From assembly GCF_988243305.1 (NCBI RefSeq), contig NZ_OZ547136.1: a stretch of DNA of 64,000 nt, one strand, 5' to 3'. The notes beneath the pieces are model-generated. The model was not told the DNA's origin. It ran no database searches and worked only from the letters and a program-made list of their open reading frames with translations. Of the stretch, positions 2,615-60,144 are shown piece by piece (position 1 is the stretch's first letter; every line of letters begins with the position of its first letter). Position numbers and translations under genes: made by a program.

Positions 2615-3752
2615 TCAGGCATCACGCGGTAACCCTTTTTCAATTACCCGAACCAGACGCTGTTTTTTCGGCAATTGCACTGCGACTATGCACGCATTTC
2701 GTCTCTCGATTTGCTGCGCAATCGCCCACGCTATGTGCTCATCAAGAAGTGGGTGCTCACCTTTACGACTTTCCAGCGCCGCCAGAATCGTTTCATCCCA
2801 GGGCGCATTGCCTAAGGCTACGGCAATATTACGCAGCCAACGCAGGTGACCTATACGGCGAATCGCCGAACCTTCCGTGACTTTTAAAAACTTCTCTTCA
2901 CTCCAGGCGAATAACTCAATGAGTTCCGGTGCGTGTAGCGGCTTACGCGGGCTGAAATCGTCTTCTGTAGTGAGTTGCGAATAGCGATTCCACGGGCAGA
3001 TAAGCTGGCAGTCATCGCAACCATAAATACGATTTCCCATTAACGGTCGCAACTCTTCCGGGATCGCCCCCTCCAGTTCGATGGTGAGATAAGAGATACA
3101 GCGGCGAGCATCGACGGTATATGGCTCGACGATGGCTCCGGTCGGGCAAATCGTCATACAGGCCACGCATTTACCGCATCCTTCCTCGACTGGTTGATCC
3201 ACGGGCAGAGGAATATCGACCAGCAATTCGCCTAAAAAGAAGAACGAACCGGCCTCGCGATTGAGGATAAGTGAGTGCTTACCTGTCCAGCCAAGTCCTG
3301 CTTTTTCAGCTAACGGGCGCTCGAGAATAGGCGCAGAATCGACAAACGGTCTAAAATTCAGCGAAACACAATGTTGCTGAATCATCTCGCCCAGCTTTTT
3401 AAGTCGGTTGCGCAGAAGTTTGTGATAGTCACGGCCCAGCGCATAACGGCTAACATAGCCGAGTTTGGGATTTTTCAGCGTGCTGGCAAATGCGGCGTTA
3501 GCAGGAAGGTAATTCATCCGCACGCTGATCACGCGCAGCGTACCGGGCAATAACTCATGGGGGCGGGCACGTAGCATACCGTGACGCGCCATCCAGTCCA
3601 TTTCGCCGTGGTATTGTTTGTCCAGCCATGCTTGCAGTTTGGGCTCGGACTCGCTGAGATCGGTATCGGTAATACCTACCTGCTGAAAGCCCAGTTCTAG
3701 CCCCCACTGTTTAATATTTTGCGCTAATTGATTGAGATCGAGGGGCTCTGAC

Positions 3753-3754
<2 letters not shown>
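2615..3754 (-). CDS. queG: Epoxyqueuosine reductase QueG (4Fe-4S, cobalamin-dependent)
   Basis: ORF 2615..3862(-); 379-aa form starts at ATG 3754 (MSEPLDLNQL...); ferredoxin-type Cys motifs CGKCVACMTICP and CDDCQLICP. Confidence 0.9.
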
Positions 3755-5733
<1,979 letters not shown>

Positions 5734-39473: not shown

Positions 39474-40544
39474 TTATTTAATCCGGGCCATCGCGCTTCT
39501 CAGTGCCAAATCTGCCTCTTCCGTTATCTCCAGACTTTTCTGCAACACCGTTTCTGACCGGGACAGTGCCTGACGTGCTGCCAGCGGTTTCCGGATATGC
39601 TCCATCGTCAGCATCGTGTCCTCGTAGCCCTGCTGACGCCAGGCGTCGGTATGTGCCGACGTGAAACTGAGCAGACCGCCACTGTTGCCACCATCACCTG
39701 CATATTTCAGCCTTTTCCGGGGACGGATCTCAAGGATTGTGGTGTCCGGAAAAGCCTGGCGATCCCATAAAGAACCGTCACTCAGATGCGACACAATCAC
39801 CATATTGCATCCGGCATCGACCAGAGGCGTTACAGGGGTATTTCCCTGCATATTTCGCCATCCTCCCATACCACCATCACCGAACATTGTCCCCTGAACC
39901 TCACGGGGACGGAACAACAGGGGCAGTGCGGCTGACGCAAGCAGAGCCTCTTTCTGCTGTCCGCGGGGCAGACTCTGGATATGCTGAAAAACGGCGTTTT
40001 TCGTGGTTCCGGAACCCAGTTCAGCACGAATGCAGTCAATAATATCCTGCATGCCCCCTTCTGTGGGGTACAGCGACACATACAGCGGTAGCCCGTCTGC
40101 CAGAGCATCTGTATCAAGATAATGATCCATCAGCGCTGTCAGGGGCCCATCTGACAACAACGGCTGAGTCATCGGATTGTCGAAGCCGTTGATTATCGAT
40201 ATATGGCGAAGAAGTGTCGTAAGCAGTGCTCCTGCACGTCCGGGGATCTGGCAGAGGTTCATTGCCTGGAACAATTTTTTCAGCAATGAAAAGTAAACCG
40301 ATCGGTTTACCGACAGCACCTGATTATTCCCAAGATGATCCCAGAGCGCCTCCAGGCGTACGGCAGCTTCTGACAGATCGGGAGAGGCCGCGATAATGGC
40401 ACCATTGAATGCGCCAATGCTGGCCCCTGAAACCATGCTGATCTGTGTACCACACTCTGCCAGTGCCTTAACCACTCCCGCCTGATAAGCGCCCACCGCC
40501 CCACCGCCGGACAGCACCAGCCCTGTTTTTATTTCTATACTCAT
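39474..40544 (-). CDS. Patatin-like phospholipase
   Basis: 356 aa; oxyanion motif SGGGAVGAYQAG, nucleophile GASIG (GxSxG), catalytic Asp in FGDGG; ATG overlaps stop of upstream gene (ATGA). Confidence 0.85.
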   Translation of the reverse strand: MSIEIKTGLVLSGGGAVGAYQAGVVKALAECGTQISMVSGASIGAFNGAIIAASPDLSEAAVRLEALWDHLGNNQVLSVNRSVYFSLLKKLFQAMNLCQIPGRAGALLTTLLRHISIINGFDNPMTQPLLSDGPLTALMDHYLDTDALADGLPLYVSLYPTEGGMQDIIDCIRAELGSGTTKNAVFQHIQSLPRGQQKEALLASAALPLLFRPREVQGTMFGDGGMGGWRNMQGNTPVTPLVDAGCNMVIVSHLSDGSLWDRQAFPDTTILEIRPRKRLKYAGDGGNSGGLLSFTSAHTDAWRQQGYEDTMLTMEHIRKPLAARQALSRSETVLQKSLEITEEADLALRSAMARIK

Positions 40545-41446
40545 GCAGCCCCCTTCTGAAATATTTCATCGACCATACTTTCAGAGAGGCGTTCTGCAGA
40601 GCAGAGACGGGGCATGCGAACCGGTAAGTGTTCTGCAGCCTGCGTGGTTGACCAGATCACCGGATGCTGCTCTTCACTGCACCAGTCCCCCAGCCAGTTA
40701 ATCGCGTCATGCCACTCGTTATCTGCCTGCTCCCGGCCCTGACCACCAAGCCAGTCCAGAGTGTTCAGACGCACGGTTGCACTACCGCCACTCTCCTGTG
40801 CCATCTGCGTTAATGCTTTATGTCTGAGAATATCCAGTAGCTGGTTAACCTGGCCTGTTTCGCCCTGACGTATCACATCACCAAACGCGCCCCAGCGAAG
40901 CTCTTCAAGTGCCACATAACAACGTCCGGCAGGGGAAAATGACGCATATCGCCCGGCGCTCCACCAGGAGAATATCTGCTCAAGATGTAACTGCGCCCGC
41001 TGAACCAGGTCAACACGGTGGAGTTTTTCTTCAAGATGATTCAGTTTCTGGTGAACCTGATCGGCCAGGGTGAGTAACTGCTCCCGCGTATCTGCGGAAT
41101 AATGCGCCAGCCTGGCAGTATCACTGACCAGTGAACTGACCCTGTCGTTTACCCGGGTAATCGCGTAGTTTGTGGTGGCAAGTGACGTTGTCAGCTCCGT
41201 CAGCCAGCGCAGGGACGCCTCAACGCCCTGTGCAAGCGAAGCATTGATGGCATTCTGCCGTGCAGCACCTTCGCCGCTCAGCCCCTCTTTTAACCGCCGG
41301 AAGAACGTGCGCTCTCCGGCCGTACGGATATGCTCCTGTGCAACATCAATACCGTTTGCGAAATCAACCACAAATTTTTCAGGAAGACAGGTGAGTACCT
41401 GACATACCCGGTTATCAGCAATTTGTTGAATAAATGGTGAAGTCAC
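40541..41446 (-). CDS. YjcZ-like protein (partner of dynamin-like GTPase)
   Basis: 301-aa ORF; GTG start overlaps dynamin stop; family call from memory of chromosomal crfC-yjcZ pair. Confidence 0.65.
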   Translation of the reverse strand: MTSPFIQQIADNRVCQVLTCLPEKFVVDFANGIDVAQEHIRTAGERTFFRRLKEGLSGEGAARQNAINASLAQGVEASLRWLTELTTSLATTNYAITRVNDRVSSLVSDTARLAHYSADTREQLLTLADQVHQKLNHLEEKLHRVDLVQRAQLHLEQIFSWWSAGRYASFSPAGRCYVALEELRWGAFGDVIRQGETGQVNQLLDILRHKALTQMAQESGGSATVRLNTLDWLGGQGREQADNEWHDAINWLGDWCSEEQHPVIWSTTQAAEHLPVRMPRLCSAERLSESMVDEIFQKGAA

Positions 41447-43827
41447 AGCATTGTCTCCAGTTCTTCCCTTAACGCCTTACTGTCAGTAATGAGCTCAGGA
41501 ACCCTTTCATTTAACGCCTGAAGACGCCCGGTCAGCCGTTCCTGCGCCTGCTGATCGCGTTTATGATCTTCAGAGCTCTGAATCAGCGTGTTACGCAGCT
41601 GTTCAACTTTCTCCCTGAATGTACAGAAAAAGGCATCGATTTCCTGGCGGACGGGCTGGTTAATATCCTGCTCAATGGATGCCTGCAGCTCCCCGAAATA
41701 TGCCCGGGTCAGTGACATCACTTCCTCTCTGACCTTGTTGATATTGATCACGCTGCGGCTCACATCCACACTGTACTCTTTCCAGCCCCAGTCACTGGTG
41801 TTTGCCCATCGACAAAGCGTACCCCAGACACCATCCTGTCGACAGCGACGGGTTACTGTCTCCGTTCTTTCCTCCATAAGCGCGCTCAGATTTGTTTTTA
41901 CTGCGAGCCGGGTCTGTAACTGGCTGACTGCCGGAAAACTGATTTTTACAGTGAAACCTTCATCCTCCAGACGGGCATTGATGCGTCCGGCAATATTTTC
42001 TGTGGCGTACAGGGCCGTACCACGAAAACCTGTTTCAATACCCCTGACGATTTTTTCCAGTTCAGGACGGAACTGTGCTTCAGCCTCACGGTGCAGGCTG
42101 GTCACGGTCGATTCGATTTGCGTCATCAGTTCAAGGGCTTCCCTGCGATCACTGAATTTTATTTCGGGGCTGTCCGGATCAAAGTCCCGCATCCTGTCAT
42201 GCTGATTTCCGGTTCCGAAAATATCGTGAAAGAAAGCGAATGCGTTTCTCTCCCGGGGCTGCGCTGAATTTTCTTCCTCCAGCATTTGCTGTTCTTTGCG
42301 TTTACCGCTTCTGAAATAGTCATTCAGCTCCTCTTCCAGTGAGGTGCAGACCCCCGTCAGTAATTCCCGGGTTCTGGCATCGATCTCCTCCATGGCCATT
42401 CTGACATCAGCGGTCACCTGCTCCTGACAGTCCGCGATTTCCCGGATATCCGCAAGCAGGCTGGTGATATGCGACTGCAGTGACTGAATGCTTTGCTGTA
42501 GCCCCTGATGGCGTAATGACAGATATTCGCTGACATTTTCCGCATTCTGCATCAGTTTTGCGGCGGCAGAATCAACCGCCAGTGCCGCCGCTCTGGAATG
42601 GGAGCTCTGTATGACTTCCGTTATCAGTTGATCGATAAGTGAGCCTTCCCACAGGTCTGTCGCCCCTTCGGTTGCCATTTCACTGTCTTTACAGACGTAT
42701 TCTTTTTTCATGCGACCGAAGGCTTCCCTGACAAAATCATCGACCCAGGCTTCATCAACAGGAAGGGTTCTGTTTTTCCGTAACTCATGAAGCGCACGGT
42801 TAGCCAGGTACGCCTGACGTGATGAGCCTGGATAAACGCGGGAGGCGGGCAGCACATCGCTGTTCAGCATTGCCGGAACTTTCTGGCGTACGGCATCTGC
42901 CCCATCGCCATTGCGGTCTTTCTCATCAAATTTATTGACCAGCACAAACAGGCGGCCAGCTGATACGTCAGCAATGGCATTAAGCTCTTTACGGACGTCT
43001 TCATCCGCTTTTGAGTTCATCTGGGTGTAATCCATCACCGCCAGCACCGCAGAGGCTTTCTGCAGTTGATCCCGCATCATCACTTCCATCTGCGGTTGTC
43101 CGGCCTCATTAGGGCCGGGGGTATCCAGCAGTGTGAGTGTTCCCTGGCATGGATCCATCCCCACCAGATGGCTGAATTCCACGTCGATCACCGGCAGTTT
43201 CTGCACTTCTGCGTATTCATCAAAAGGAAACTCACTCCCCATTGCCGCAGCAAGGCGAACCAGATCGTTTAACGATGCCAGTCCGGTAAAAATTTCCTCC
43301 TCCCCGTGGTATTCATTTTTGAGCCAGCCATCATTTGCCAGAATATCCAGCAGTTCGCAGGTATCCCCGGTTTGCTGCAGGGTCTGTGCGACTTGCTGTC
43401 CTGCCGGGGTGTCGAGTTTTTGTTTCAGTGTGCTTAATAAATTGCGGACGGGCTGAATATGTTCCAGATGGAGGACCGGCTCAGTTTTTCCGGGAACGTG
43501 GCGGATGAGCGTCGGTACAGAGGTCATGGGGCGGTTACGGTTAGGCAGAATTTCCTGCCCCACAATGGCGTTGATGGTGGTTGATTTACCTGCTTTCATC
43601 GTGCCGACAACAGCCAGCACCATCTCCCTGCGGGCGGTTTTGATTTGTTCGCCCTCCAGCTCCTCAATTCTTTTCAGTGCTTTCTGTTTATCAAAAAGCA
43701 GTCTGTTTTCGTTCTTACTGTCAGATAACACATCCGGCTCATCAACCATTTGCCGGAGCAGATTAATGTTCAGTTGCAAAAGTCGGTCGGCTTCATCACA
43801 AAGCAGGGCGATGTTCTTTTCGTGCAT
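41443..43827 (-). CDS. Bacterial dynamin-like GTPase (CrfC/YjdA- and LeoA-like)
   Basis: 794 aa; G1 GTMKAGKST, G3 DTPGPNE, G4 NKFD; long helical C-terminal region; RBS AGGAAGG upstream of ATG 43827. Confidence 0.85.
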   Translation of the reverse strand: MHEKNIALLCDEADRLLQLNINLLRQMVDEPDVLSDSKNENRLLFDKQKALKRIEELEGEQIKTARREMVLAVVGTMKAGKSTTINAIVGQEILPNRNRPMTSVPTLIRHVPGKTEPVLHLEHIQPVRNLLSTLKQKLDTPAGQQVAQTLQQTGDTCELLDILANDGWLKNEYHGEEEIFTGLASLNDLVRLAAAMGSEFPFDEYAEVQKLPVIDVEFSHLVGMDPCQGTLTLLDTPGPNEAGQPQMEVMMRDQLQKASAVLAVMDYTQMNSKADEDVRKELNAIADVSAGRLFVLVNKFDEKDRNGDGADAVRQKVPAMLNSDVLPASRVYPGSSRQAYLANRALHELRKNRTLPVDEAWVDDFVREAFGRMKKEYVCKDSEMATEGATDLWEGSLIDQLITEVIQSSHSRAAALAVDSAAAKLMQNAENVSEYLSLRHQGLQQSIQSLQSHITSLLADIREIADCQEQVTADVRMAMEEIDARTRELLTGVCTSLEEELNDYFRSGKRKEQQMLEEENSAQPRERNAFAFFHDIFGTGNQHDRMRDFDPDSPEIKFSDRREALELMTQIESTVTSLHREAEAQFRPELEKIVRGIETGFRGTALYATENIAGRINARLEDEGFTVKISFPAVSQLQTRLAVKTNLSALMEERTETVTRRCRQDGVWGTLCRWANTSDWGWKEYSVDVSRSVININKVREEVMSLTRAYFGELQASIEQDINQPVRQEIDAFFCTFREKVEQLRNTLIQSSEDHKRDQQAQERLTGRLQALNERVPELITDSKALREELETML

Positions 43828-44026
43828 TATTTAACCTTCCTGAGACGCATTTTCATGACAACCACGGAGGAGGTCATTTACTACAAACGATCGTTTATAA
43901 CGATCGATATACTCTATTAACTTGAGAAACACAACGCAAGGGGACAACCCGGGTATGGCTGCGTTTGCATAGTGTTTTCATGGAGTTAAAAATCTGTAAC
44001 AATAGCCTGGTACATCACCACCGGGT

Positions 44027-44899
44027 TCAGAAGAAAATCCAGTTCCATACCGCGCGGGCAACAGAGACCACCGAGTCACGGACGGCTCGCAGAACCGTAC
44101 GAGCCACAGAGGCAACACAGACGCTCTCCGCTGTGTCAAATATCCGGTCCACCGCACCGGTAAACTGTTCACGGGCCTGAGAGCGGACAGACTCCGTGCG
44201 CAGTTCGTCCTGCAGGCGGGTCATCAGGGGGCTGGCGGCATGGTCGGGAAGCGCTGTCATGAGCGCACTGACCAGCGTATCCAGTTCCCAGCCGGTGCAG
44301 GCCGATACGGCCACAACCGGATGTACGGGCCGGAACAGCCGGAATACCGCCTCCGTTTTCTCACGAATGTTCTGTGCCTGTGCGGGAGAAGGCTGAATGC
44401 CGGCCATATCCCATTCATGGCAGGGCTCCGTTTTGTCGGCCTGCGTCACCACAAACAGCACCTGCTGATGTCCCCGGTGCAGGATGTGTCGCCAGAAATA
44501 CTCATCCACAGACAGGGCACGGTCATCGGCTTTAATCAGCCACAGTACCAGGTCAAGTTCAGGCAGAATGTCACGGTACAGGGCTTCATACTCTGCATCC
44601 CTGTCCCGGCTCTCGCCCACCCCGGGCAGGTCAGTGATAATCATGCTGTGACCGTGGCCACTCAGACGGAAGCGCCGCACTTCCCGGGTGCCGGCGTGAA
44701 CATCACTGACCGGGGTGACCTCCCCCTGAAACAGCGCATTACAGAGTGAGGATTTACCGGCCCCGCTTTTACCCATAATGCCAATCACGGGTTCGTGACT
44801 GGTGAGTTTGCGCAGATGTTCCTGGATGTGACGGGAAAGTGAGTAAGGCAGGGAGGAGAGCGGTTTTTCAATTGCCTCAATGGCATCAGACGGATTCAT
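44027..44899 (-). CDS. YfjP/YeeP/YkfA-family GTPase of CP4-like islands
   Basis: ATG 44899 (MNPSDAIEAIEKPLSS...); P-loop GIMGKSGAGKSS, DLPG; possible upstream GTG start at 44962. Confidence 0.8.
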   Translation of the reverse strand: MNPSDAIEAIEKPLSSLPYSLSRHIQEHLRKLTSHEPVIGIMGKSGAGKSSLCNALFQGEVTPVSDVHAGTREVRRFRLSGHGHSMIITDLPGVGESRDRDAEYEALYRDILPELDLVLWLIKADDRALSVDEYFWRHILHRGHQQVLFVVTQADKTEPCHEWDMAGIQPSPAQAQNIREKTEAVFRLFRPVHPVVAVSACTGWELDTLVSALMTALPDHAASPLMTRLQDELRTESVRSQAREQFTGAVDRIFDTAESVCVASVARTVLRAVRDSVVSVARAVWNWIFF

Positions 44900-44983
44900 A
44901 CATGTATTCCCGGTGAAAAAAGACAAAACCCCCGCACACCGGAAAGGTGGCGGGGGACTCACAGAGATAATATATGTCTGAAA

Positions 44984-45901
44984 TTATCTGGAATGTCGGT
45001 ACCTTTTATACTCTTCAACAATCAGGTCATGCAGCATTTCGCCGGTACTGAGTCTTCTGACCCTCGATAATTCTTTGAGCTGCGCCCTGGTTTCTGCGTC
45101 AAGAAAAAACTGTACATTGACTTTATCTTCCTGCATTTTTTTGTACTTGCGCTGCGCCTTGGCCTTATTGAAACTGTTTCTGAAATTTTTTATATCGTCA
45201 GGTGAGGTGAGTGTACAGGTAACCCATATGTCAAATGAAAGGTGAATTGCGTGGTAAATATCAGCAGAACCAGGAAAACTGGCCAGTTTTTCCAGTGCAA
45301 TATTTTTTCCCTTCAAATAATTCCATGTCCATATGCATTCATGTTCGTTCTCCGGGAGGAGGTAACTGAAAGGACTCTTTGATTTAAATGCCCGTATCCA
45401 TCTGTCTTTGGTCTGGATTATCCACTCATCCCGCAAATTCTTATCAGAAAGAATATCGAGAACTCTGAGTATTTGTCTGAACTGTGTCGATGAGTCCGAC
45501 GGGAAGGCATTCCCTTCTAAATACTCTTCTTTAAGATACAGTTTATTCTTTTGAAGCAAGTCTGCACTTATTTTTGCCCTGTTATTCTGGATAAACTGCA
45601 TCAACAGATACCAGGAAAATAAGCATGCGCGTTCACTGCCCGCGATCCAGGATATTTTTTCCAGGGGGACCAGGAAGGCCTGGGCCTTCAGACGCATACC
45701 AGAAATGATTTGTTCAAGTTCAAAATCTGAAAGTGTGATGTTCAGATTTTCTCTGTTTTTTTTTATGTAAGCGATAAAACGTTCCGGGGGATCATAAACA
45801 TTAAGGGGCAGTACGGAGATATTACGCTCTCCAAGATAATAAGAGTAATACGCATTTGTTCTTTCATTCATAACCTTATCCGACAAAATTTTCTGAACCA
45901 T
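44984..45901 (-). CDS. AT-rich hypothetical protein with C-terminal ribbon-helix-helix-like segment
   Basis: 305-aa ORF; RBS GGAGAAAGGGG; C-terminus VQFFLDAETRAQLKELSRVRRLSTGEMLHDLIVEEYKRY resembles an RHH DNA-binding fold; base composition visibly lower in GC than neighbours. Confidence 0.7.
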   Translation of the reverse strand: MVQKILSDKVMNERTNAYYSYYLGERNISVLPLNVYDPPERFIAYIKKNRENLNITLSDFELEQIISGMRLKAQAFLVPLEKISWIAGSERACLFSWYLLMQFIQNNRAKISADLLQKNKLYLKEEYLEGNAFPSDSSTQFRQILRVLDILSDKNLRDEWIIQTKDRWIRAFKSKSPFSYLLPENEHECIWTWNYLKGKNIALEKLASFPGSADIYHAIHLSFDIWVTCTLTSPDDIKNFRNSFNKAKAQRKYKKMQEDKVNVQFFLDAETRAQLKELSRVRRLSTGEMLHDLIVEEYKRYRHSR

Positions 45902-47101
45902 CCCCTTTCTCCGGTTGCTTAAAAATTAAACACAACAAGGTGATAATAACATGATAAAAAGAAGTTTATAATGGTATATTAAGGTGGTCAATAAAAAGGC
46001 AATCTGCGCACTGTATAGTCATTATGACAGGAAATGCAGGAGGAAGGGAAGGTAACCGGCTTCGTTATGCTGACAGGAATACCTGTTATCATGGAAGTGC
46101 ATTCATGTGGCCGACGTAGCTTAAGAGGATGGAAGAGTGGAGACTGCAGACAGGGGGTATTGAAAGGTAAACATGTTTCGCCCGCCAGCTGCACCGGAGG
46201 CCAGCATCACTTTTTTTACGTTGTAACCTGGTATGCATTCCGGCTTTGATGATTACAGTCAGAGGGCAGCAGACTGACGTTATTTAACCGGACAGCAAAA
46301 TTATGGACACTGAAATATCGTCCGTTAATACCTCGTTTGTCGGTGTGGTATTCCCTGTATTACCGGCGTCACCGATAAAGAGAGTTATAAACGCCAGAAA
46401 GGTACCTGCTTTATGCCGGGGAACACTTATGGAAAATGAAGTCTGAAAAGGAGCACAATGAAAAGAGACGTGTCCCGTAAATATAACGAATCATCGCAGG
46501 ATATGCATTATCAGGTGATACCAGAGTGCATTAAACTGCCGTCACGGATAAGAATATACAACATTTCTGATAACAAAACATCATAACGTGTTTCAGATAT
46601 GTTCCGGCATCAGTCTGACGGATATTATTTCCCGGGAAAACAAACCTGCTACTGTGACGGTTAACTGTATCTGCATAAATTATTTATGATGAAAGAACAG
46701 TATTACGGATTCAAATATCATCCTGTTTGCATTCAGGCGGACATTCCCGGATGCCGAAAAGAATATCCTGCAGGCTGAGTGAGTCTCTTCCACAGTGCCG
46801 GGATCGCTGTCGCCACGTACATATTGTCACCAGGATGGGTATGTACCGCAGCATGCCATTTCTGGTGAATAACCGCACCTGCACATTCAGTCTGCTGAGA
46901 ACCTGGCGTGCATCGGGCTGTAAAGAACATCCCTGTCCGTGGCTCCTCTGGTGGTGTTGCCTGCTCAGTAATGACAGGATGCCCTTAAGACGCCCGTCAT
47001 GGCTCAGTATGATGACGACGAACACGCTCTGCAGGTGAGCATGCGGGGCCGGGAGCATCATCATTTCCGTATTTTGTCACACCTTCCGGAAGCAACCGGC
47101 A

Positions 47102-47719
47102 TCAGTTGCGGTTATCGTCAACCGTTGTGCGGTATGCCAGGAGCACGTACTGATCCATCAGATCCGTCAGTGCTGCGCTCTGCCTCTGACGGTTGATGAT
47201 CCATTCCTCCAGCTCTTTTTCTGATTTCCGTTTCAGGTTCTCTTTCCAGTCTTCAAGGCTGTTTCCGGTCATTAAATCAAGCCAGCAAAGCCAGACCAGT
47301 TTGAGGCGCAACTCCGTGCCACCAAACTGACGGAAGAGGCTAATCAGTTTATTTGCCAGAGAACGCTGCCTCAGACGTTCACATTCAGACAGGAGAATGC
47401 CTTCCAGCATCGGATGATGAACCAGCAGATGTTCACTGGTGCATAAATTCACTATCAGATCATCATCCAGGGGCGGCGTGGCCCGTTTGTCAGGGCCATA
47501 AATCAGCCGGTGCAGGCTCTGGGGTACGATGGCAATCTCCGGTTTTTCACCATTGAATGACACCCACCCGGGCGTCAGATTATGGAAGTAGTAGATATTC
47601 GGATGACACACGCCCCAGGATACGGCGTGCCGGGTGAAGCCGGTCAGCCATTTCTGGTAGCTTTCGTGGAGCAGTTCGTAACGGGTCTGATACTGTTGTT
47701 TCATTTTCATATTCCTCAC
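47102..47719 (-). CDS. Hypothetical protein (205 aa) downstream of alpA-like gene
   Basis: Uninterrupted ORF; no family recognised from sequence alone. Confidence 0.6.
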   Translation of the reverse strand: MRNMKMKQQYQTRYELLHESYQKWLTGFTRHAVSWGVCHPNIYYFHNLTPGWVSFNGEKPEIAIVPQSLHRLIYGPDKRATPPLDDDLIVNLCTSEHLLVHHPMLEGILLSECERLRQRSLANKLISLFRQFGGTELRLKLVWLCWLDLMTGNSLEDWKENLKRKSEKELEEWIINRQRQSAALTDLMDQYVLLAYRTTVDDNRN

Positions 47720-47798
47720 GGGGATATAACAGGCAGCAGAATGCCGCCGGCAGGCCGGGGATTACGTCTGCTGCGGGTGAACGGATAACGGTCAGAAA

Positions 47799-48005
47799 TT
47801 ACGGACGGGACTGTGCAATACGCGCCTGCAGCCAGGCTTCCACTTCACTTTTCAGCCATCGGGAACTGCGGCCCAGCTTGATGGGGGCCGGAAAGGCCCC
47901 ATCCCTGATGAGTTTGTAAAACCACTTATCGGTCAGGCCAGTCAGTTGAGTGATAAACGCCATGTCGACCATCTGGTCATCCATCAGTGAAACTGGGGTG
48001 GTCAT
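47799..48005 (-). CDS. AlpA-family prophage transcriptional regulator (excisionase-like HTH)
   Basis: 68-aa form from ATG 48005 after RBS GGAGG; MTTPVSLMDDQMVDMAFITQLTGLTDKWFYKLIRDGAFPAPIKLGRSSRWLKSEVEAWL. Confidence 0.8.
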   Translation of the reverse strand: MTTPVSLMDDQMVDMAFITQLTGLTDKWFYKLIRDGAFPAPIKLGRSSRWLKSEVEAWLQARIAQSRP

Positions 48006-48911
48006 GAGAATGTTCCTCCGGATGTTGTTAATCTCAACCGGCGTTGGTGATGAAAACAACGCACCACCTTCACCGGCATAACAACCGGGGAGAAACGTAA
48101 AAAATAATCGGGAATGTGACCGCCAGGAGATAAACGGGGGGATTGCGGTGGCTGAGCCGTACCGGTATGTCGGGTGGTTGTTGCGAAACGATGCTTCCGC
48201 ACGCGATAAAGGAGGGAGGACTTTCGTGAGACAAGGGGAAAACTAGCGTTCTGATAATTGCAGAGTTGTTTTTGAAGGCGGTTGTGGTATATCAGCCTGT
48301 GACCTGTGGGCAGGCGACAGTTATCACTGGTGGGATAATACTGTCTGATTGGTATTATAAATATATAAGAGAGATCAAACACATGAGATCAAACACATGA
48401 GTTCATATATGTGAAATAAATCTGTGAGTGTGATCAGCAGACCAGTCTACCCAGTAGCAACAGATTGCGTTGTACTCACAGGGTTATCCCTGATAACTGG
48501 CGTATAACCTGCGTACATAAAACGTACCTGCAATGCACCTGAACAGAGTGCATTAAGCATCCGCCTGAGCGGTAAACGTATCCGATCTGGTGAGTGACAG
48601 TCTGAGAGCATTCTCAGTAATCGCCCCCTTGTATCCTGGAAATTGGTTAAGATAACAGCGATTAGATTTGGCAAGGTGTATGCAGCCAGCAGCTTAACAT
48701 CTCAGCTAACTGGCTGGTTACCTTCAGGTTGTCGCAATGGCATCGGACATCCGGTGTCGGATAACTAAACGTAGCGTTAAGGCGATATTGCTGAGAGACC
48801 GGTTAAGTGGTTGCACGGGAGTAATGAGTTTGGGGAGGGCACCAGAATGCCAGGTTGGTGCGGTATGCTGACAGCATCCTGTTAACCGCAGCATAAAGTA
48901 ATGAGAGGCTA

Positions 48912-49124
48912 ATGGAAGTTAAAACCAAAGAAGACTGGCTGTATCAGCTCCGTCGTTGTTCATCCCGGGAGACACTGGAAAAAGTGATTTCCCACACACG
49001 TTATAAACTTACCCCTGCGGAGCTGGAAGCCTTCAACTCTGCGGTCGATCACCGGCTGGCAGAACTGACAATGAACAAGCTTTACGATCGCGTGCCGGCT
49101 TCAGTCTGGAAATATGTCATCTGA
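48912..49124 (+). CDS. Small hypothetical protein (70 aa)
   Basis: ORF with upstream GAGAGG; no family recognised. Confidence 0.4.
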
Positions 49125-49756
49125 GCGTTCGGTAATCACAACGGCATCGCGCCAGGTGTTATCCGCTTTGTGATTCTTATTGGCTCTTCTCAGGTTATTA
49201 AAAGCTGAATATGTTCCTGTTGTCGGGAACCAGGATAATGTCGGGAACGTTAAGCTGTATAACGACAACAAAGAATTCGAAATCAAAAGGGAATGGTGTA
49301 CGGAGGTGTGGACGGTAATGGGCCGATTTTCGGGCATTACCGACCTCTGCTGAGGTTTTCTCGTATTTCTGGGGATCCGGTGAGTTACTGTCACTGTCTG
49401 GCACAGCAAGCGCAGAGGCGGCGGGGCGCTTTGCTCCGCTGATTCCGGATAATTCCTCCCCTGTAACCTACCGCAACAGTACAAATACACTGACGCCTGA
49501 AACGACAGCCAGAATCAGCACAAGCCACAATCCCTGCACACCGTTTTGCGTATCACCATAACGCCTCCTCACAGCCTTACCCGTAACCGGTTTTTTACAT
49601 TAAAAAAACAACGCTGGGAATTCAATCGTCAGTCCGGAGACGACAGTCGGGTTATCACAGAGTGCCTGAGACAGTGTCCTGCCGGAGGTCACCTCAGGGA
49701 CTCTGCACATTTTTTACAGCGTGGCTATTCCGTATGAACCATACGGAGATTTAACC

Positions 49757-50326
49757 ATGACCTACAAATACAACCCCTTCTGGCAGCAACGTATTCGTGA
49801 GACGGTGCGGCACGCACTGAATGTTCATCCCCGCCTGACGGCATTGCGGGTTGACCTGCGTCTCCCGGATGTACCGGCAGCAACGGACGCAGCTGTGATA
49901 TCCCGCTTCATCAATGCCCTGAAAGCCCGAATCGACGCTTACCAGAAACGTAAGCATCGGGAAGGTAAACGCGTGCATCCCACAACCCTGCATTACGTCT
50001 GGGCCCGGGAGTTTGGGGAGTGCAAAGGTAAAAAACACTATCACCTGCTGCTGCTGGTCAACCGGGATACCTGGTGTCGTGCCGGTGATTACCGCGCTCC
50101 GGGGTCACTGGCCGGGATGATTAAACAGGCCTGGTGCAGTGCCCTGGGAGTGGATGCCGGACGTTATGACACGCTGGCACATTTTCCGGTCAGGCCGGCG
50201 GTGTGGCTGGAACGCGATGATGACACCGGCTTTCAGCAGGTGCTGGAGCGTGCTGACTATCTGGCGAAGGAGAGTACCAAAGCTTACGGCACCGGTGAGC
50301 GCAACTTTGGCTGCAGTCGTGGCTGA
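49757..50326 (+). CDS. YagK/YfjJ-family (inovirus Gp2-like) protein
   Basis: ATG 49757 after RBS GGAGAT (MTYKYNPFWQQRIRETVRHALN...); family typical of CP4-like islands. Confidence 0.7.
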   Translation: MTYKYNPFWQQRIRETVRHALNVHPRLTALRVDLRLPDVPAATDAAVISRFINALKARIDAYQKRKHREGKRVHPTTLHYVWAREFGECKGKKHYHLLLLVNRDTWCRAGDYRAPGSLAGMIKQAWCSALGVDAGRYDTLAHFPVRPAVWLERDDDTGFQQVLERADYLAKESTKAYGTGERNFGCSRG

Positions 50327-54533: not shown

Positions 54534-55194
54534 AACAGGTGTCCACTAGTTGATGAAAAGGTGGGCACCTACGTTACCAATACTGGCTTAATGGCTACAT
54601 ACGGCGGTCAGTTTACGCTTACCATGTATCTGGCGAGTGAAGCTTTATGTCGTGTTCTGGCGTGTCCTGTGTTAGTTAGAACACGCCATCGATGGTCAGC
54701 AGGTTCATATTGCACCAGAGCGGATACAGCGTGGTGTTATGTCAGGGCTGCGCTGTTTACGTGAACACGTGGCGTATGGCCCCGCTTCCTGGCCGCTGCT
54801 GGGCATGGATCACGGCGCGACAAAGGGGCGACTACCTGGCAGCATGTGTCCAGCCGGTTCACAATCTGGTGAAGGTTCCTTACGCTCATGGGCCATACTG
54901 ATAATTCACCAGGCCATCATTTCCAGAGGAAGACGCCGTTTGCGTAGCGTGACAGTGTCGGACTCTTCAGGGCTGTGGGTAATCAGTTCCGGGGCAAGAT
55001 AGTCGCAGAGGGTTACGCAGAGAATAGTAACTGGACACTGGATCGATCAACCGATCCTTAACTGAGCGGCATGACAGCTTTCTGATGGTTTTTTTTTGAT
55101 AATCTTCACATTGTGCTTCTTTTCTGTTGGATAATCTTTGTACTTGATGGTGTACTAGGTATCCCATTATGCAGTTAAGTGAAGGTGATTAAAA

Positions 55195-56112
55195 ATGCAA
55201 TGTGAATTTAAAGGGGTCATATCAGCATTACCCACTCCTTATGACCAATCCCAGCAAACCGATATGGAGAGTCTTCGAAAACTGATCCGTTTTAATATCG
55301 AACAAAATATTAAGGGATTGTATGTTGGAGGCTCTACTGGAGAAGCATTTCTTCAGAATGTTGCAGAGCGAGAAAAAATTCTTGAAACAGTAGCCGATGA
55401 ATCAGATGGAAGACTGACACTTATAGCGCATGTGGGCGGAATCAGTACGGCAGAAAGCGAGGTACTTGCAAAAGCTGCAAAAAAATACGGATATCATGCT
55501 ATATCTGCTGTTACTCCATTTTATTATCCTTTTTCATTTGAAGAGCATTGTATCCATTACAGGAAGATTATTGATTCTGCAGATGGACTTCCGATGGTAG
55601 TTTATAATATACCGGCTCTTAGCGGAGTGCGTTTTTCTTTAGATCAGATAAATGAGCTTGTCACAATACCCAGGGTTTGTGCATTAAAACAGACATCCGG
55701 TGATTTATTCCAGATGGAACAAATCAAAAGGAATCATCCAGAGCTTGTGTTATATAATGGTTACGATGAAATATTTGCATCAGGGTTAATTGCAGGTGCA
55801 GATGGGGGAATCGGTAGTACATATAATATAATGGGGTGGCGTTATCTTGAAATATTTGAAGCAGTCAAAAACAATGATGTGATTAAGGCGAAGGAAATGC
55901 AAGTAGCCTGTAACCAGGTTATTGACACTCTTATTCAGAGTGGTGTCCTGGCAGGTATAAAAACTCTTCTTTACTATATGGGGATTATAAATACTCCTGT
56001 ATGCAGAAGTCCTTTTTCTCCGGTAAAGGAAAAGAATCTGGATGTATTATCAAAACTTGCAGAGCGACTGTTCGAAGAACATGACAGAAACAAAAAAATG
56101 AAAATAATCTGA
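55195..56112 (+). CDS. N-acetylneuraminate lyase paralogue (NanA-like, DHDPS family)
   Basis: 305 aa; GGSTGE and Schiff-base Lys region (ALKQTSGDL) resemble NanA. Confidence 0.8.
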
Positions 56113-56145
56113 ATAATTGCAAGATTGTTATATAGGTGAAAATGA

Positions 56146-57021
56146 ATGATAACACTGGCTGTTGATATAGGAGGAACGAAAATTTCAGCGGCGTTGATAT
56201 CTGATGACGGTTCATTTTTGCTGAAAAAACAGATATCAACACCTCATGAAAGATGTCCTGACGAAATGACAGGGGCTTTACGTCTACTGGTTTCTGAAAT
56301 GAAGGGAACAGCGGAGCGATTTGCAGTAGCATCAACAGGGATTATTAATAATGGAGTATTGACAGCTCTGAATCCAGACAATCTTGGAGGGCTGAAAGAG
56401 TATCCTCTGAAAAATATAATGGAAGATATAACTGGTTTAAATGGAAGTGTGATAAATGATGCCCAGGCAGCCGCATGGGCAGAATATACAGTTTTGCCGA
56501 AAGAAATTTGTGATATGGTTTTTATAACCGTTTCTACGGGGGTTGGAGGGGGAATTGTAGTTAACAGAAAATTATTAACAGGTGTTTCTGGATTAGCCGG
56601 ACATGTTGGGCATATATTGTCCGGAGTAACGGATACAGAATGTGGATGTGGTCGTCGGGGATGCGTTGAAGCGGTTTCATCTGGTCGGGCCATCATGGGG
56701 GCAGCAAAAAATAAACTTGCAGGATATAGCACCAAATATATTTTTGAATTAGCGAGACAGGGATATAAGGAAGCAGAATTTTTGACAGAGCGTTCTGCCA
56801 GTACTATTGCTGAATTAATAGTAAGTTTAAAATTACTGCTTGATTGTCAGGTTGTTGTTGTCGGAGGAAGTGTTGGACTTGCTGATGGGTATGTTCAGAA
56901 AGTGTCGAAACATCTTTCCATATATTCTGAAATTTGTAATGTAATGCTGTTTCCGGCATATTTCAGAAGTGACTCTGGTCTTATTGGTGCAACTCTTTGG
57001 GACCGGGATTGTATTACTTAA
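56146..57021 (+). CDS. ROK-family sugar kinase (NanK-like)
   Basis: 291 aa; N-terminal DIGGTK and ROK zinc motif CGCGRRGC. Confidence 0.8.
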   Translation: MITLAVDIGGTKISAALISDDGSFLLKKQISTPHERCPDEMTGALRLLVSEMKGTAERFAVASTGIINNGVLTALNPDNLGGLKEYPLKNIMEDITGLNGSVINDAQAAAWAEYTVLPKEICDMVFITVSTGVGGGIVVNRKLLTGVSGLAGHVGHILSGVTDTECGCGRRGCVEAVSSGRAIMGAAKNKLAGYSTKYIFELARQGYKEAEFLTERSASTIAELIVSLKLLLDCQVVVVGGSVGLADGYVQKVSKHLSIYSEICNVMLFPAYFRSDSGLIGATLWDRDCIT

Positions 57022-57069
57022 AGTAATACTCCAGTGTATTATAAATCCGCTATTATTGTGAGGTTTAAT

Positions 57070-58536
57070 ATGGACTCCTGTATTCAGAAAAAGCAGGTTT
57101 GGTATAAGCATCTTTCACCCAGACAGTGGAAGATATTCGGTGCGGCATGGACAGGTTATTTACTTGATGGTTTTGATTTCGTTCTGATATCTCTGGTTCT
57201 TACAGAGGTTCAGCATGAATTCGGCTTGACGACAATAGAAGCGGCAAGCCTTATTTCCGCTGCTTTTATTTCTCGATGGTTTGGGGGGCTTGCTATTGGC
57301 GCTTTATCGGACAAGATGGGGCGCAGGATGGCAATGGTTTTAAGTATAGTGCTATTCTCTCTCGGAACCCTTGCCTGTGGTCTGGCTCCTGGATATGCAG
57401 TGATGTTTATTGCTCGCATTGTTATTGGGCTTGGTATGGCAGGTGAATATGGCTCAAGTGTAACATATGTTATCGAAAGCTGGCCTGTTCATCTCAGAAA
57501 CAAGGCAAGTGGTTTTTTAATTTCTGGATTTTCTATTGGGGGAGGTTTAGCTGCACAGGTTTATAGCATTGTAGTACCACTATGGGGCTGGCGTTCTCTT
57601 TTCTTTGTCGGCATGCTTCCAATATTATTTGCTTTTTATCTTCGCAAGAATCTTCCGGAGTCTGATGACTGGCAAAAAAGGCAACAAGAGAATAAACCCG
57701 TCAGAACAATGGTGGATATTCTGTACAGAGAAAAGAATAAATACATAAATATTCTTCTGTCTTGTATTGCATTTGCATGTCTATATGTTTGTTTTTCAGG
57801 CGTCACTGCAAACGCTGCTTTAATCACAGTTATGGCATTGTGCTGTGCGGCTGTTTTTATCAGTTTTATATATCAGGGTATGGGGAAAAGATGGCCAACA
57901 GGCATTATGTTGATGCTTGTGGTTATGTTCTGTTTCCTCTACGGATGGCCACTGCAGGCTTTTCTTCCTACATGGCTTAAGGTTGATATGCAGTATTCAC
58001 CAGAAACTGTTGCTCTCATATTTATGCTGGCAGGTTTTGGCTCTGCAGCTGGAAGTTGTATAGGTGGTTTTATGGGGGACTGGCTTGGAACCCGAAAAGC
58101 ATATGTTATATCACTTCTTATCGGTCAGCTTGTTATTATCCCCGTTTTTCTTGTGGACCGGGACTATGTATGGTTACTTGGCCTTCTAATCTTTACTCAG
58201 CAGGTTTTTGGTCAGGGGATTGGTGCTCTGGTGCCGAAAATAATCAGTGGTTATTTTAATGTGGAGCAGCGTGCGGCAGGACTGGGGTTTATTTATAATG
58301 TAGGTTCACTTGGTGGAGCATGTGCGCCTATTCTTGGTGCAGTTGTTGCGTCTCATACAAGTCTTGGTACAGCAATGTGTTCTCTTGCTTTTATCTTAAC
58401 ATTTGTTGTTCTTGTCCTTATTGGTTTTGATATGCCATCACGTGTACAGAGATGGATCCATCCAGAAGCTGCGCTTGAATATGATACTGTCGATGGAAAA
58501 CCTTTTTATGGAGCAAGAAAAAAGAATGTTGCATAA
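57070..58536 (+). CDS. MFS sialic-acid-type transporter (NanT-like)
   Basis: ATG 57070 ([37 protein letters not shown]...); about 12 TM helices. Confidence 0.8.
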
Positions 58537-58566
58537 GAATAACGGATGCTATCAGGGAATAAAAAA

Positions 58567-59376
58567 ATGATTCATTACAGGGAGAATATATATTCTCTTG
58601 ATAATTATGAGCGTTATATAACTGACAGTTCGCTATTTGAGAATACTGGCGATGGCATAATATATACAGGTATTGTGCCCCTTATTACAGTTGTTGAGCC
58701 TGTTGTATCTAATCAACATAGTGTGCTGATTATACCTGGAGGTGGATACAGGAGGATTGTTTATGAAAGAGAGGGACTTGATGTTGGCAGATGGATAGCA
58801 GGTCAGGGATATACGGCATTTATTCTTTCTTACAGAATGCCCTCCGTTAATGGTTATTATTCCTTTGCAGATGCGAAGAATGCCCTGAACTTTATTTCTT
58901 ACTGGGCCGGAATGTCGGAGAGAACATTTAAGAGTGTTGGATGTATGGGGTTTTCGGCAGGTGGTCATCTTGCTGGATATATTACTCATCTCCATTATGA
59001 GGAAGAGACTTCTGTGCGTCCTGACTGGATGGCTCTGATATATCCAGTTATATCTCTTGACAGGAGTATTGCTCATCAGGGATGCCGGAAACGTCTTCTG
59101 GATGCAGGTGAAAGTGAATATTCAGCCAGTCTTGAAAATAGTGTTACAGAGTATATGCCACCAGTCTTTATTGTGCATGCAACAGATGATAAGGATGTTC
59201 CAGTTATTCATTCTCTGAGATATTTTAACTCTATTCGGGATAAGGGACATCATGCAGAAGCTCATTTTTTTGATAAGGGAGGTCATGGATTTGGTGTATC
59301 CGGAAAAAATGGATATCCGATAGAAAAATGGCAAAGCCTGCTTCTGGAATGGCTTGCGGAACATAAGTTTTATTGA
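58567..59376 (+). CDS. Alpha/beta-hydrolase esterase (copy 1)
   Basis: RBS AGGGA upstream of ATG 58567; IIPGGGY and nucleophile GFSAGGH motifs. Confidence 0.75.
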   Translation: MIHYRENIYSLDNYERYITDSSLFENTGDGIIYTGIVPLITVVEPVVSNQHSVLIIPGGGYRRIVYEREGLDVGRWIAGQGYTAFILSYRMPSVNGYYSFADAKNALNFISYWAGMSERTFKSVGCMGFSAGGHLAGYITHLHYEEETSVRPDWMALIYPVISLDRSIAHQGCRKRLLDAGESEYSASLENSVTEYMPPVFIVHATDDKDVPVIHSLRYFNSIRDKGHHAEAHFFDKGGHGFGVSGKNGYPIEKWQSLLLEWLAEHKFY

Positions 59377-59421
59377 GAAATCAAATTACAAGTGATAAAT
59401 ATATTTAATGATGAGGCATTT

Positions 59422-60132
59422 ATGAAAAAATATTATCCACTATTAACTGTAATTCTTCTTGGTTTACCTTTGTGCTCTCAGGCATTAACTCTTAATCTAC
59501 GTGGGGGATACAGAAGCGCCAGTCACGCTTATGAAACGTTGATTCAGGTTAGTCAGGGGTGGAATAATGGTTGGTGGGCAAGTTTTGAGTCAAACACCTG
59601 GAATACAATTCACAACAATGAAAATGAATTGTTTGCACTCAATTATAATAAAATAGATATAAATAAAACATATAAAATAGATGACAAATGGGCTCTAATC
59701 CCAGGGATTCAGACACAATGGATGTCAGCAGGAAGTCAGTATAACCCTTATCTGAAAATTTCGTATCAGGCAACGCCAGATCTTAATCTGGCCTTACGCT
59801 ATCGCTATGACTGGAAAGCTTTCCGACAGACGGATTTAGATGGCAACAGGGCGCGTAATGATCAGCATCAGTTTGATGGTTATGTGACATACAAAATTAA
59901 TGATTCATGGTTGTTTGCATGGCAGACCACGGTATATACGAAGGTTAATAATTTCAAATATGGGAATCATAAAAAAACAGCAACTGAAAATGCATTTGTT
60001 CTGCAATATAAAATGTCACCGGTGTTCACCCCATATATAGAATATGATTACTTGGATAAACAAGGGGTGTATAAGGGGAAAGATAATAAACATGAAAATA
60101 GTTACCGTGTCGGTGTTCTGATTAATTTTTAA
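59422..60132 (+). CDS. KdgM/NanC-family outer-membrane channel
   Basis: ATG 59422 (MKKYYPLLTVILLGLPLCSQA...); signal peptide; C-terminal beta-strand ending in F. Confidence 0.8.
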   Translation: MKKYYPLLTVILLGLPLCSQALTLNLRGGYRSASHAYETLIQVSQGWNNGWWASFESNTWNTIHNNENELFALNYNKIDINKTYKIDDKWALIPGIQTQWMSAGSQYNPYLKISYQATPDLNLALRYRYDWKAFRQTDLDGNRARNDQHQFDGYVTYKINDSWLFAWQTTVYTKVNNFKYGNHKKTATENAFVLQYKMSPVFTPYIEYDYLDKQGVYKGKDNKHENSYRVGVLINF

Positions 60133-60144
60133 AAGGTGATTACA

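Follow-up and report, generated by a model that had tools for sequence, protein, structure and literature searches.

What is the AT-rich gene that sits between alpA and a YfjP/YeeP-like GTPase gene in an integrative island, and is it a recent arrival there or part of the island itself? The question is raised by an open reading frame (ORF) at positions 44984-45901, on the minus strand, of a 64,000-nucleotide stretch of contig NZ_OZ547136.1 (RefSeq assembly GCF_988243305.1), hereafter the window; its 305-aa product is referred to as X. The original prediction, made from the letters alone, described X as an orphan, recently acquired and possibly defensive gene with a DNA-binding tail. The physical observation was sound, and the orphan, recent and defence framing was not. 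X is a member of a large, widespread, uncharacterised protein family of Gammaproteobacteria, and we give about an even chance to the reading that it acts as a DNA-binding regulator, belonging to the island backbone, of the YfjJ/AlpA module and of itself.

The reading frame was borne out from its ATG, which is preceded by a Shine-Dalgarno sequence (GGAG) 7 nt upstream, to its stop codon, and RefSeq names the product a hypothetical protein (WP_000250223.1-like). Uninterrupted 305-aa orthologues are present in Salmonella, Serratia fonticola, Enterobacter mori and Edwardsiella. Comparisons within E. coli gave ratios of nonsynonymous to synonymous substitution rates (dN/dS) of 0.17-0.38, and comparison with the Serratia orthologue gave a dN of 0.21 with dS saturated. 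X is a real gene under purifying selection.

The gene is not an orphan. By megablast, 1408 of the 5426 complete E. coli genomes, Nissle 1917 among them, carry X with an identity of at least 95%; the copies were chromosomal in all cases, numbered up to four per genome and were always annotated as "hypothetical protein". Upon searching 1.84 billion representative proteins with an orthologue profile, we found at least 271 clusters (50% identity, E ≤ 1e-3), most of them 290-335 aa long and aligning end to end. A profile scan of genomes, which used a 12-sequence subset and sampled only members with the motif KAW[HSG]QKK[HY], placed the family in Enterobacterales, Vibrio, Shewanella, Psychromonas and Marinobacterium, and Foldseek against AFDB added structural matches in Moraxellaceae and Aeromonadales. 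No model in Pfam, NCBIfam, PHROG or PADLOC covers the family, and single-sequence searches with X alone gave nothing usable from Pfam, NCBIfam, PADLOC, PHROGs or PDB. A literature search on WP_000250223, Ybl124 and YfjJ/YagK found no functional study.

The low GC content turned out to be a trait of this family. X has a GC content of 0.405 (0.448 at third codon positions, GC3), with all three codon positions depleted, compared with 0.588 (GC3 0.646) for the GTPase gene, 0.51-0.57 for the other island genes and 0.504 for the entire window. It is the minimum-GC gene within the island segment at 39-54 kb. The AT-richness relative to the island neighbours therefore stands, by windowed GC and by GC3, but it is not extreme in the window: 9.4% of the 918-nt windows are as low or lower, nearly all of them in the sialic-acid (nan) cluster at 55-63 kb. 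The same difference recurs in other genera, with 0.375 for the family member against 0.54 for the downstream GTPase gene in Serratia, 0.366 against 0.55 in Edwardsiella, and 0.449 against 0.56-0.58 for the neighbours on a Klebsiella plasmid. Since the family member is more AT-rich than the genes around it in every genus checked, low GC is an old family property. The "separate, more recent acquisition" proposed earlier does not hold, and a scan by GC content would misread such a family trait as a recent arrival.

The first ~265 residues had been described as unrecognisable, which remains true of databases, since the N terminus of X has no match in Pfam, NCBIfam or PADLOC, or in PDB by sequence; the region nevertheless resolves into a repeat. 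When the segments were compared using hhalign, R1 (aa 77-172) aligned with R2 (aa 173-256) at a probability of 97.9% (E 5.5e-13), and the N-terminal module N (aa 1-76) aligned with R2 at a probability of 88% (E 3e-6, 71 columns). In the 60-sequence family alignment, R1 carries the motifs (F/I)xW(L/I)...RACxWxW and then ER..I..FFD.W, R2 carries PFxWL...QCxWAWxYL and then YLAIxAxFDxW, and the C-terminal end of R2 is a basic helix, KAxxQ(R/K)KY(K/R). AlphaFold2 (AF2) placed helices of module N at residues 8-24, 39-48 and 59-76, and the predicted local distance difference test (pLDDT) of R2 in the monomer model was mainly 85-93. Judged from these alignments and models, aa 1-256 consist of a single three-helix module repeated three times in tandem. 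The model of X is all-helical apart from the ribbon-helix-helix (RHH) domain at its C terminus, and no enzymatic or effector domain was found. We propose that the modules serve in oligomerisation or in binding a partner or a signal.

We consider it very probable that the C terminus is an RHH domain that binds DNA. The family profile matched solved RHH proteins (SvtR at E 0.005, and also CopG and MatP), and of 60 family members scanned singly, 17 matched Pfam RepB-RCR_reg at E ≤ 0.1, four of them at E ≤ 1e-3, and six matched RHH_1 at E ≤ 0.1. The nearest sequence models within the RHH (MetJ/Arc/CopG) superfamily are PF10723 RepB-RCR_reg and SvtR (PDB 2kel). RHH strands are formed solely in dimers, and the strand was modelled as helical in the monomer, so we modelled a fused-copy construct in which a Gly-Ser linker joins aa 173-305 to a second copy of themselves, using 24 aligned sequences that had been fused in the same manner. 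The resulting AF2 model has the strand-helix A-helix B topology over ~45 aa (strand 88-96, helices 97-110 and 114-132, repeated in the second copy; pLDDT 83-91), and the strands of the two chains are predicted to pair into an antiparallel ribbon, as in the RHH2 fold. The RHH-like tail expected earlier is therefore supported as to its strand-helix-helix order; its extent, ~aa 257-303, goes beyond the last 35 residues to which it had been assigned. On this sequence evidence, the new element of X is the triplicated N-terminal domain without known relative, set within a known class of RHH DNA binders.

A resemblance to MatP raised another reading, in which X would organise the island in the manner of MatP, condensing or positioning its DNA by bridging repeated sites. 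The family profile matched MatP weakly, over profile positions 184-293 at E 0.2-0.3, and hhalign of our alignment A2 against E. coli MatP gave E 9e-4 over 105 columns. Both proteins (MatP: PDB 4d8j, 3vea) have a helical domain, a basic helix and an RHH domain in the same order, and the CxWxWxYL motif resembles GWKWKYL of MatP. However, the relationship, first seen by eye, was given up after a split test that aligned the RHH only: the helical module reached a probability of 8.7% over 12 columns. The similarity is confined to the RHH helices and a 12-residue W-x-W motif, with no structural match, and X shows no homology to the four-helix-bundle N-domain of MatP (PF06303 and PF17414). The C-terminal coiled coil of MatP is without counterpart in X, which ends ~5 residues after helix B, and MatP is a chromosomal housekeeping gene whereas X is an island gene. 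A MatP-like role is very improbable.

The neighbour that is conserved across the family is a divergent YfjJ/YagK gene, with AlpA, and not the GTPase gene. In 13 of the 15 genome loci from other genera, a divergent YfjJ-like gene lies 270-600 bp upstream of the X-family gene, and AlpA is usually found just beyond it. The divergent arrangement was also observed in three metagenomic contigs (L011-L013) and in an island on a Klebsiella IncHI1B plasmid, and in the compact elements L011 and L012 the X-family gene adjoins the integrase. This synteny places X in the control core of the island, together with integrase, AlpA and the predicted HUH endonuclease YfjJ. A nine-sequence alignment of the YfjJ family that included K-12 YfjJ (L006:7548-8174), YagK (L014:34323-34949) and the window copy showed the invariant motifs RVDL, H-(Y/F)-H-hydrophobic and Y-x-x-K, which the window copy carries as RVDL, HYHLLLL (HUH) and YLAK (YxxK). 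RVDL, HUH and YxxK are the three classical motifs of HUH Rep proteins and relaxases, so YfjJ/YagK is predicted to be a nicking endonuclease for island replication or transfer; going by these motifs, the YfjJ/YagK "cryptic prophage" genes probably encode such an enzyme. AlpA in the window has a weak match to the NCBIfam excisionase-family DNA-binding domain (E 2.9e-4, under the curated cut-off).

Two neighbours deserve mention here. A hypothetical protein of 200-205 aa (47102-47719, minus strand; annotated as 200 aa from a later start) is a constant companion of AlpA in these islands, and a 198-aa gene occupies the matching position beside AlpA in Serratia fonticola; the 200-205-aa protein has no match in NCBIfam, PADLOC or PHROGs. 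Between yfjJ and alpA lies a paralogue of Hha (48912-49124, plus strand; 109 bits to the Hha subfamily model). Hha is a co-modulator of H-NS, and its location beside very AT-rich DNA of the island hints at silencing of the region by H-NS/Hha.

Upstream of X, 60 nt 5ʹ of the ATG form a block that is near-invariant in E. coli, Serratia and Edwardsiella, among which the proteins are 49-69% identical. The block contains three TTATCA-like hexamers with an 11-bp period (TTATCAtgttaTTATCAccttgTTGTGT, core 45939-45957) and an extended -10-like TGtTATTAT at 45943-45951, and occurs once in the window; a promoter-like TTGACC-17-TAAACT is found at 45991-45963. From its conservation and content, the block is a candidate promoter and operator. 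In more distant members, TAC[GTA][TC]AGT was found within 80 nt 5ʹ of the start in 10 of 19 loci, compared with 0.15 expected. This motif, (A)CTACGTAGT(G/A)A, occupies the position that matches the E. coli-type block (loci L011-L029), its core CTACGTAG is an 8-bp palindrome, and in Providencia and Proteus it is present in three copies, AATACTACGT. The motif variant tracks the RHH beta-strand, LNTY occurring with ACGTAGTG and [CY][SN]xV with AC(T/G)(T/C)AGTAA. RHH dimers read 8-bp palindromes or hexamers phased by one helical turn, as exemplified by MetJ with its metbox AGACGTCT and by Arc and CopG with their operators. A 16-nt direct repeat, D2 (GTCATTATGACAGGAA at 46018-46033 and GTTATGCTGACAGGAA at 46064-46079, 46 bp apart and 120-180 nt 5ʹ of X), whose first copy includes the palindrome GTCAT-T-ATGAC, was dropped as an operator candidate, as it is weakly conserved in Serratia and Edwardsiella.

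The block belongs to a 1.2-kb AT-rich region with no annotated gene and only one short dubious ORF, in which neither remnants of neighbouring genes nor an Rfam match was found. An origin, an H-NS-bound silencer and a non-coding RNA are possibilities for its role. Other E. coli islands, Edwardsiella and the Klebsiella plasmid likewise have a gap of 1.0-1.6 kb ahead of the family member.

Taking these results together, we propose that X belongs to the backbone of AlpA/YfjJ-type integrative islands, among which are CP4-57, the Shigella SRL pathogenicity island (PAI) and pheV-type islands, and that its product binds DNA sequence-specifically. The RHH domain (aa 257-305) would dimerise to form a DNA-reading beta-ribbon, and X would bind phased or palindromic sites close to its own promoter and control the divergent module of the predicted HUH endonuclease YfjJ and AlpA, presumably by repression rather than activation. 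X would then correspond, in enlarged form, to the CopG/RepB-type RHH regulators found in rolling-circle replicons; RepB-RCR_reg (PF10723) comprises regulators of Rep synthesis in rolling-circle plasmids. Like them, X has a ~45-aa strand-helix-helix predicted to form an RHH2 dimer, its family lies, in 13 of the 15 loci, beside a HUH Rep-like gene, and a candidate short palindromic or phased operator is found at its own promoter. It differs from them in size and setting. RHH proteins of this kind are 45-100 aa long, the CopG/RepB-type regulators consisting of the RHH alone in ~45-60 aa, whereas X has 305 aa with its RHH domain C-terminal to 256 aa of N-terminal modules, three in number and without known relative. 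In cop-rep operons the regulator is the first gene, whereas X is divergent from the Rep-like gene, and the CopG/RepB genes reside on small plasmids whereas X resides on integrative islands.

Several observations weigh against this reading. In the AF2 monomer, the helix that precedes the RHH strand extends through it, and X alone stayed below the threshold for every RHH model (Pfam, none at E ≤ 10; a PHROG Arc-like model, E 0.07); with these matches non-significant and the monomer strand helical, the RHH call rests on family-level evidence and an artificial fusion. The YfjJ-like gene of this window is not adjacent to X but 3.8 kb away, the Hha paralogue, AlpA and the 205-aa gene now being located between them, and no copy of the candidate operator was found near yfjJ or alpA within the window. 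The correspondence of beta-strand and motif is confounded by phylogeny, and the conserved upstream motifs could belong to the promoter or the 5ʹ untranslated region, or be bound by a different protein, for instance AlpA.

The main rival is that X is an architectural accessory of YfjJ, comparable to TraY, TrwA, NikA and VirC2 for conjugative relaxases, and not primarily a transcription factor: it would bind and bend an ori or oriT in the AT-rich upstream region, allowing YfjJ to nick there. We regard this as unlikely. Two RHH repeats make up the single chain of TraY, and each chain of X has only one, so the fusion construct favoured the match to TraY, which is largely a product of the tandem design; TraY, TrwA, NikA and VirC2 are without the N-terminal triple module that X has. 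The conserved motif adjoins the start of X, not yfjJ, from which X is separated by four genes as well as by distance in the window. Neither an oriT or nick site for X nor a nick-site-like inverted repeat conserved across genera was found.

A further reading makes X a dedicated partner of the GTPase encoded downstream. The original prediction placed X 22 bp from the upstream-most candidate start of the GTPase. That GTG at 44962 is spurious, as translation from it would pass through a hairpin and RefSeq does not use it; the RefSeq start is the ATG at 44899, 84 nt 3ʹ of the X stop codon, and the apparent 22-bp coupling was an artefact of the wrong start codon. Between the X stop codon and this ATG lies a conserved intrinsic terminator, a hairpin followed by UUUUGUCUUUUUU, with a predicted RNA fold of -26.2 kcal/mol (z -4.9). 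It is kept in Serratia and Edwardsiella, with compensatory two-sided changes in three pairs. Flanked by the conserved candidate promoter block on its 5ʹ side and by this terminator on its 3ʹ side, X appears from its sequence to be its own transcription unit. The space left between the hairpin and the GTPase start is too short to hold a promoter, and the GTPase gene must therefore be transcribed from further upstream; we infer terminator read-through or a promoter inside X.

The arrangement has some constancy. The X-family gene lies 84-90 nt 5ʹ of the YfjP-like GTPase gene in E. coli, Serratia fonticola and Edwardsiella, and the order is kept in Providencia and Proteus with ~30-45 nt between the open frames. 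This fixed spacing, together with the lack of promoter room, which makes transcription of the GTPase gene from the X promoter probable, could suggest a two-gene module in which X is an RHH antitoxin-like neutraliser or dedicated regulator of the GTPase; many type II antitoxins are RHH proteins. We nevertheless find this improbable. The downstream GTPase is limited to Providencia, Proteus and the E. coli/Serratia fonticola/Edwardsiella group, and X occurs without it in Vibrio, Shewanella, Psychromonas, Budvicia, Serratia oryzae, the metagenome loci and the Klebsiella plasmid, while K-12 YfjP and YkfA occur without X. GTPases that are 98% identical are paired with X proteins that are 17% identical, so X and the GTPase do not co-vary. 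A terminator separates the genes, and type II RHH antitoxins are small, N-terminally RHH, co-transcribed and co-varying, whereas X has 305 aa and a C-terminal RHH domain.

The same divergence of X beside a nearly constant GTPase bears on the idea that the interval between alpA and the GTPase is a cargo slot. Megablast of positions 43800-48200 showed that some genomes match the alpA side only (query 1-1422) or the GTPase side only (query 3207-4401), delimiting an exchanged segment that comprises X and ~880 bp of AT-rich upstream DNA. The occupant of the slot in two other E. coli islands (L002 and L003) is a divergent member of the X family (hidden Markov model E 2e-24 and 4e-20, respectively); the GTPases of these two islands are the ones that share 98% identity with that of the window. 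In L002 it is an intact 383-aa gene; in L003 (E. coli CUVET17-1418, L003:10685-11553) it is frameshifted, with a 219-aa ORF carrying the modules and the RHH domain in another frame, which is evidence that some alleles of the family are decaying. The interval does vary between islands, as had been expected by analogy: that of K-12 CP4-57 holds AbpAB and RnlAB, and that of CFT073 (L030:7117-8447), where the backbone is shared, holds a YfjI-family gene and a 1.3-kb unannotated stretch of 38% GC without X. X was not found in K-12 CP4-57 or CP4-6 (YfjH, YagJ, YagM and PerR included), nor in the slot of CFT073.

These facts could be read as showing that X is recently acquired anti-phage or defence cargo whose RHH tail serves for autoregulation only, as the original prediction proposed: CP4-57 carries AbpAB and RnlAB in this very interval, the X alleles are swapped between near-identical islands, and their DNA is AT-rich. 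We give this little credence. No PADLOC or PHROG defence model matched X (0 families of PADLOC-DB v2 at E ≤ 1), X was not found in the phage collection, and it has no enzymatic or effector domain. Its position is that of a core module, with YfjJ beside it in 13 of 15 loci and synteny with core island genes across Gammaproteobacteria, the AT-richness recurs in every genus checked, and the L002 and L003 slots hold family members. The "slot" idea is thus right for the interval and wrong for X, and specific tests speak against each of three readings: GTPase partner or antitoxin, defence cargo, and MatP-like organiser.

A bolder form of the regulator reading makes X both master repressor and sensor for the whole of this very common class of enterobacterial islands. 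The RHH domain would keep the excision-replication module of YfjJ (HUH Rep) and AlpA silent until the triple helical-module domain captured a helper phage or plasmid protein, whereupon the island would be derepressed. Alleles swapped between otherwise identical islands are a likeness to the master repressors of phage satellites and islands, and SaPI Stl, by position only, is analogous: like the predicted DNA binder X, it is a highly diverse DNA-binding protein divergent from an excision/replication module. Stl has a helix-turn-helix domain, with no sequence or fold relationship to X. We think this form quite unlikely; if true, X would be a Gram-negative functional analogue of Stl on a new fold, and the swapped alleles would represent different inducer specificities.

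Islands with an X-type backbone include the Shigella SRL PAI and the pheV/pheU/selC-type pathogenicity islands of uropathogenic E. coli (UPEC), Shiga toxin-producing E. coli (STEC) and Nissle. The cargo of such islands comprises Ag43, toxins, iron uptake systems, toxin-antitoxin pairs and defence genes, and the X family offers a concrete handle on the regulation of medically relevant islands. In the published table of the Shigella SRL PAI, the slot genes are given as "no similarity" or "hypothetical protein" (PMC6980539). One of the genes left blank there can now be assigned to a defined family of clear architecture, for which a DNA-binding domain is predicted and which has a conserved neighbour, the predicted HUH endonuclease, as well as candidate operators. 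The features discussed are listed in the table below.

Table. Positions in the window of gene X, its predicted domains and associated features.
Feature	Position	Strand	Basis
X coding sequence, 305 aa	44984..45901	-	ORF list; stop codon 44984-44986 included
Helical module N, aa 1-76, first of three homologous modules	45674..45901	-	hhalign, AF2
Helical module R1, aa 77-172	45386..45673	-	hhalign, family consensus
Helical module R2, aa 173-256	45134..45385	-	hhalign, family consensus, AF2
Predicted C-terminal RHH domain, aa 257-305	44987..45133	-	Strand VNVQFFLDA (aa 260-268) and two helices
Conserved block, candidate promoter and operator	45921..45980	-	E. coli/Serratia/Edwardsiella alignment
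Non-coding AT-rich region 5ʹ of X, 1.2 kb	45902..47101	-	No annotated gene but one short dubious ORF
Exchanged segment, X and ~880 bp of AT-rich upstream DNA	44994..46779	-	Megablast of 43800-48200
Intrinsic terminator, GC-rich hairpin and U-run	44916..44956	-	Fold energy, terminator scan, conservation
YfjP/YeeP-like GTPase, 873 nt	44027..44899	-	RefSeq annotation, GTPase family matches
AlpA-family regulator	47799..48005	-	Annotation; adjoins YfjJ in most related loci
YfjJ/YagK-family ("inovirus Gp2 family") gene	49721..50326	+	Annotation, synteny, motifs

Further from X, two other regions of the window were noted. On the 3ʹ side of the GTPase gene, positions 39474-43827 (minus strand) hold a three-gene operon for a CrfC-like dynamin, an RdcB-family protein and a patatin-like phospholipase. 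The dynamin scores 560 bits to NF007368, under the cutoff of 1146, and so is a paralogue; PADLOC gave weak LeoBC and phospholipase-effector matches to the operon, which may be a membrane-remodelling or defence module. A second AT-rich block, at 54900-63000, is an accessory sialic-acid utilisation cluster with genes for Neu5Ac lyase, ManNAc kinase, an epimerase, sialate O-acetylesterase and NanR. The cluster matches CFT073 at 99.9% identity, and copies of IS66 lie between it and the island core.

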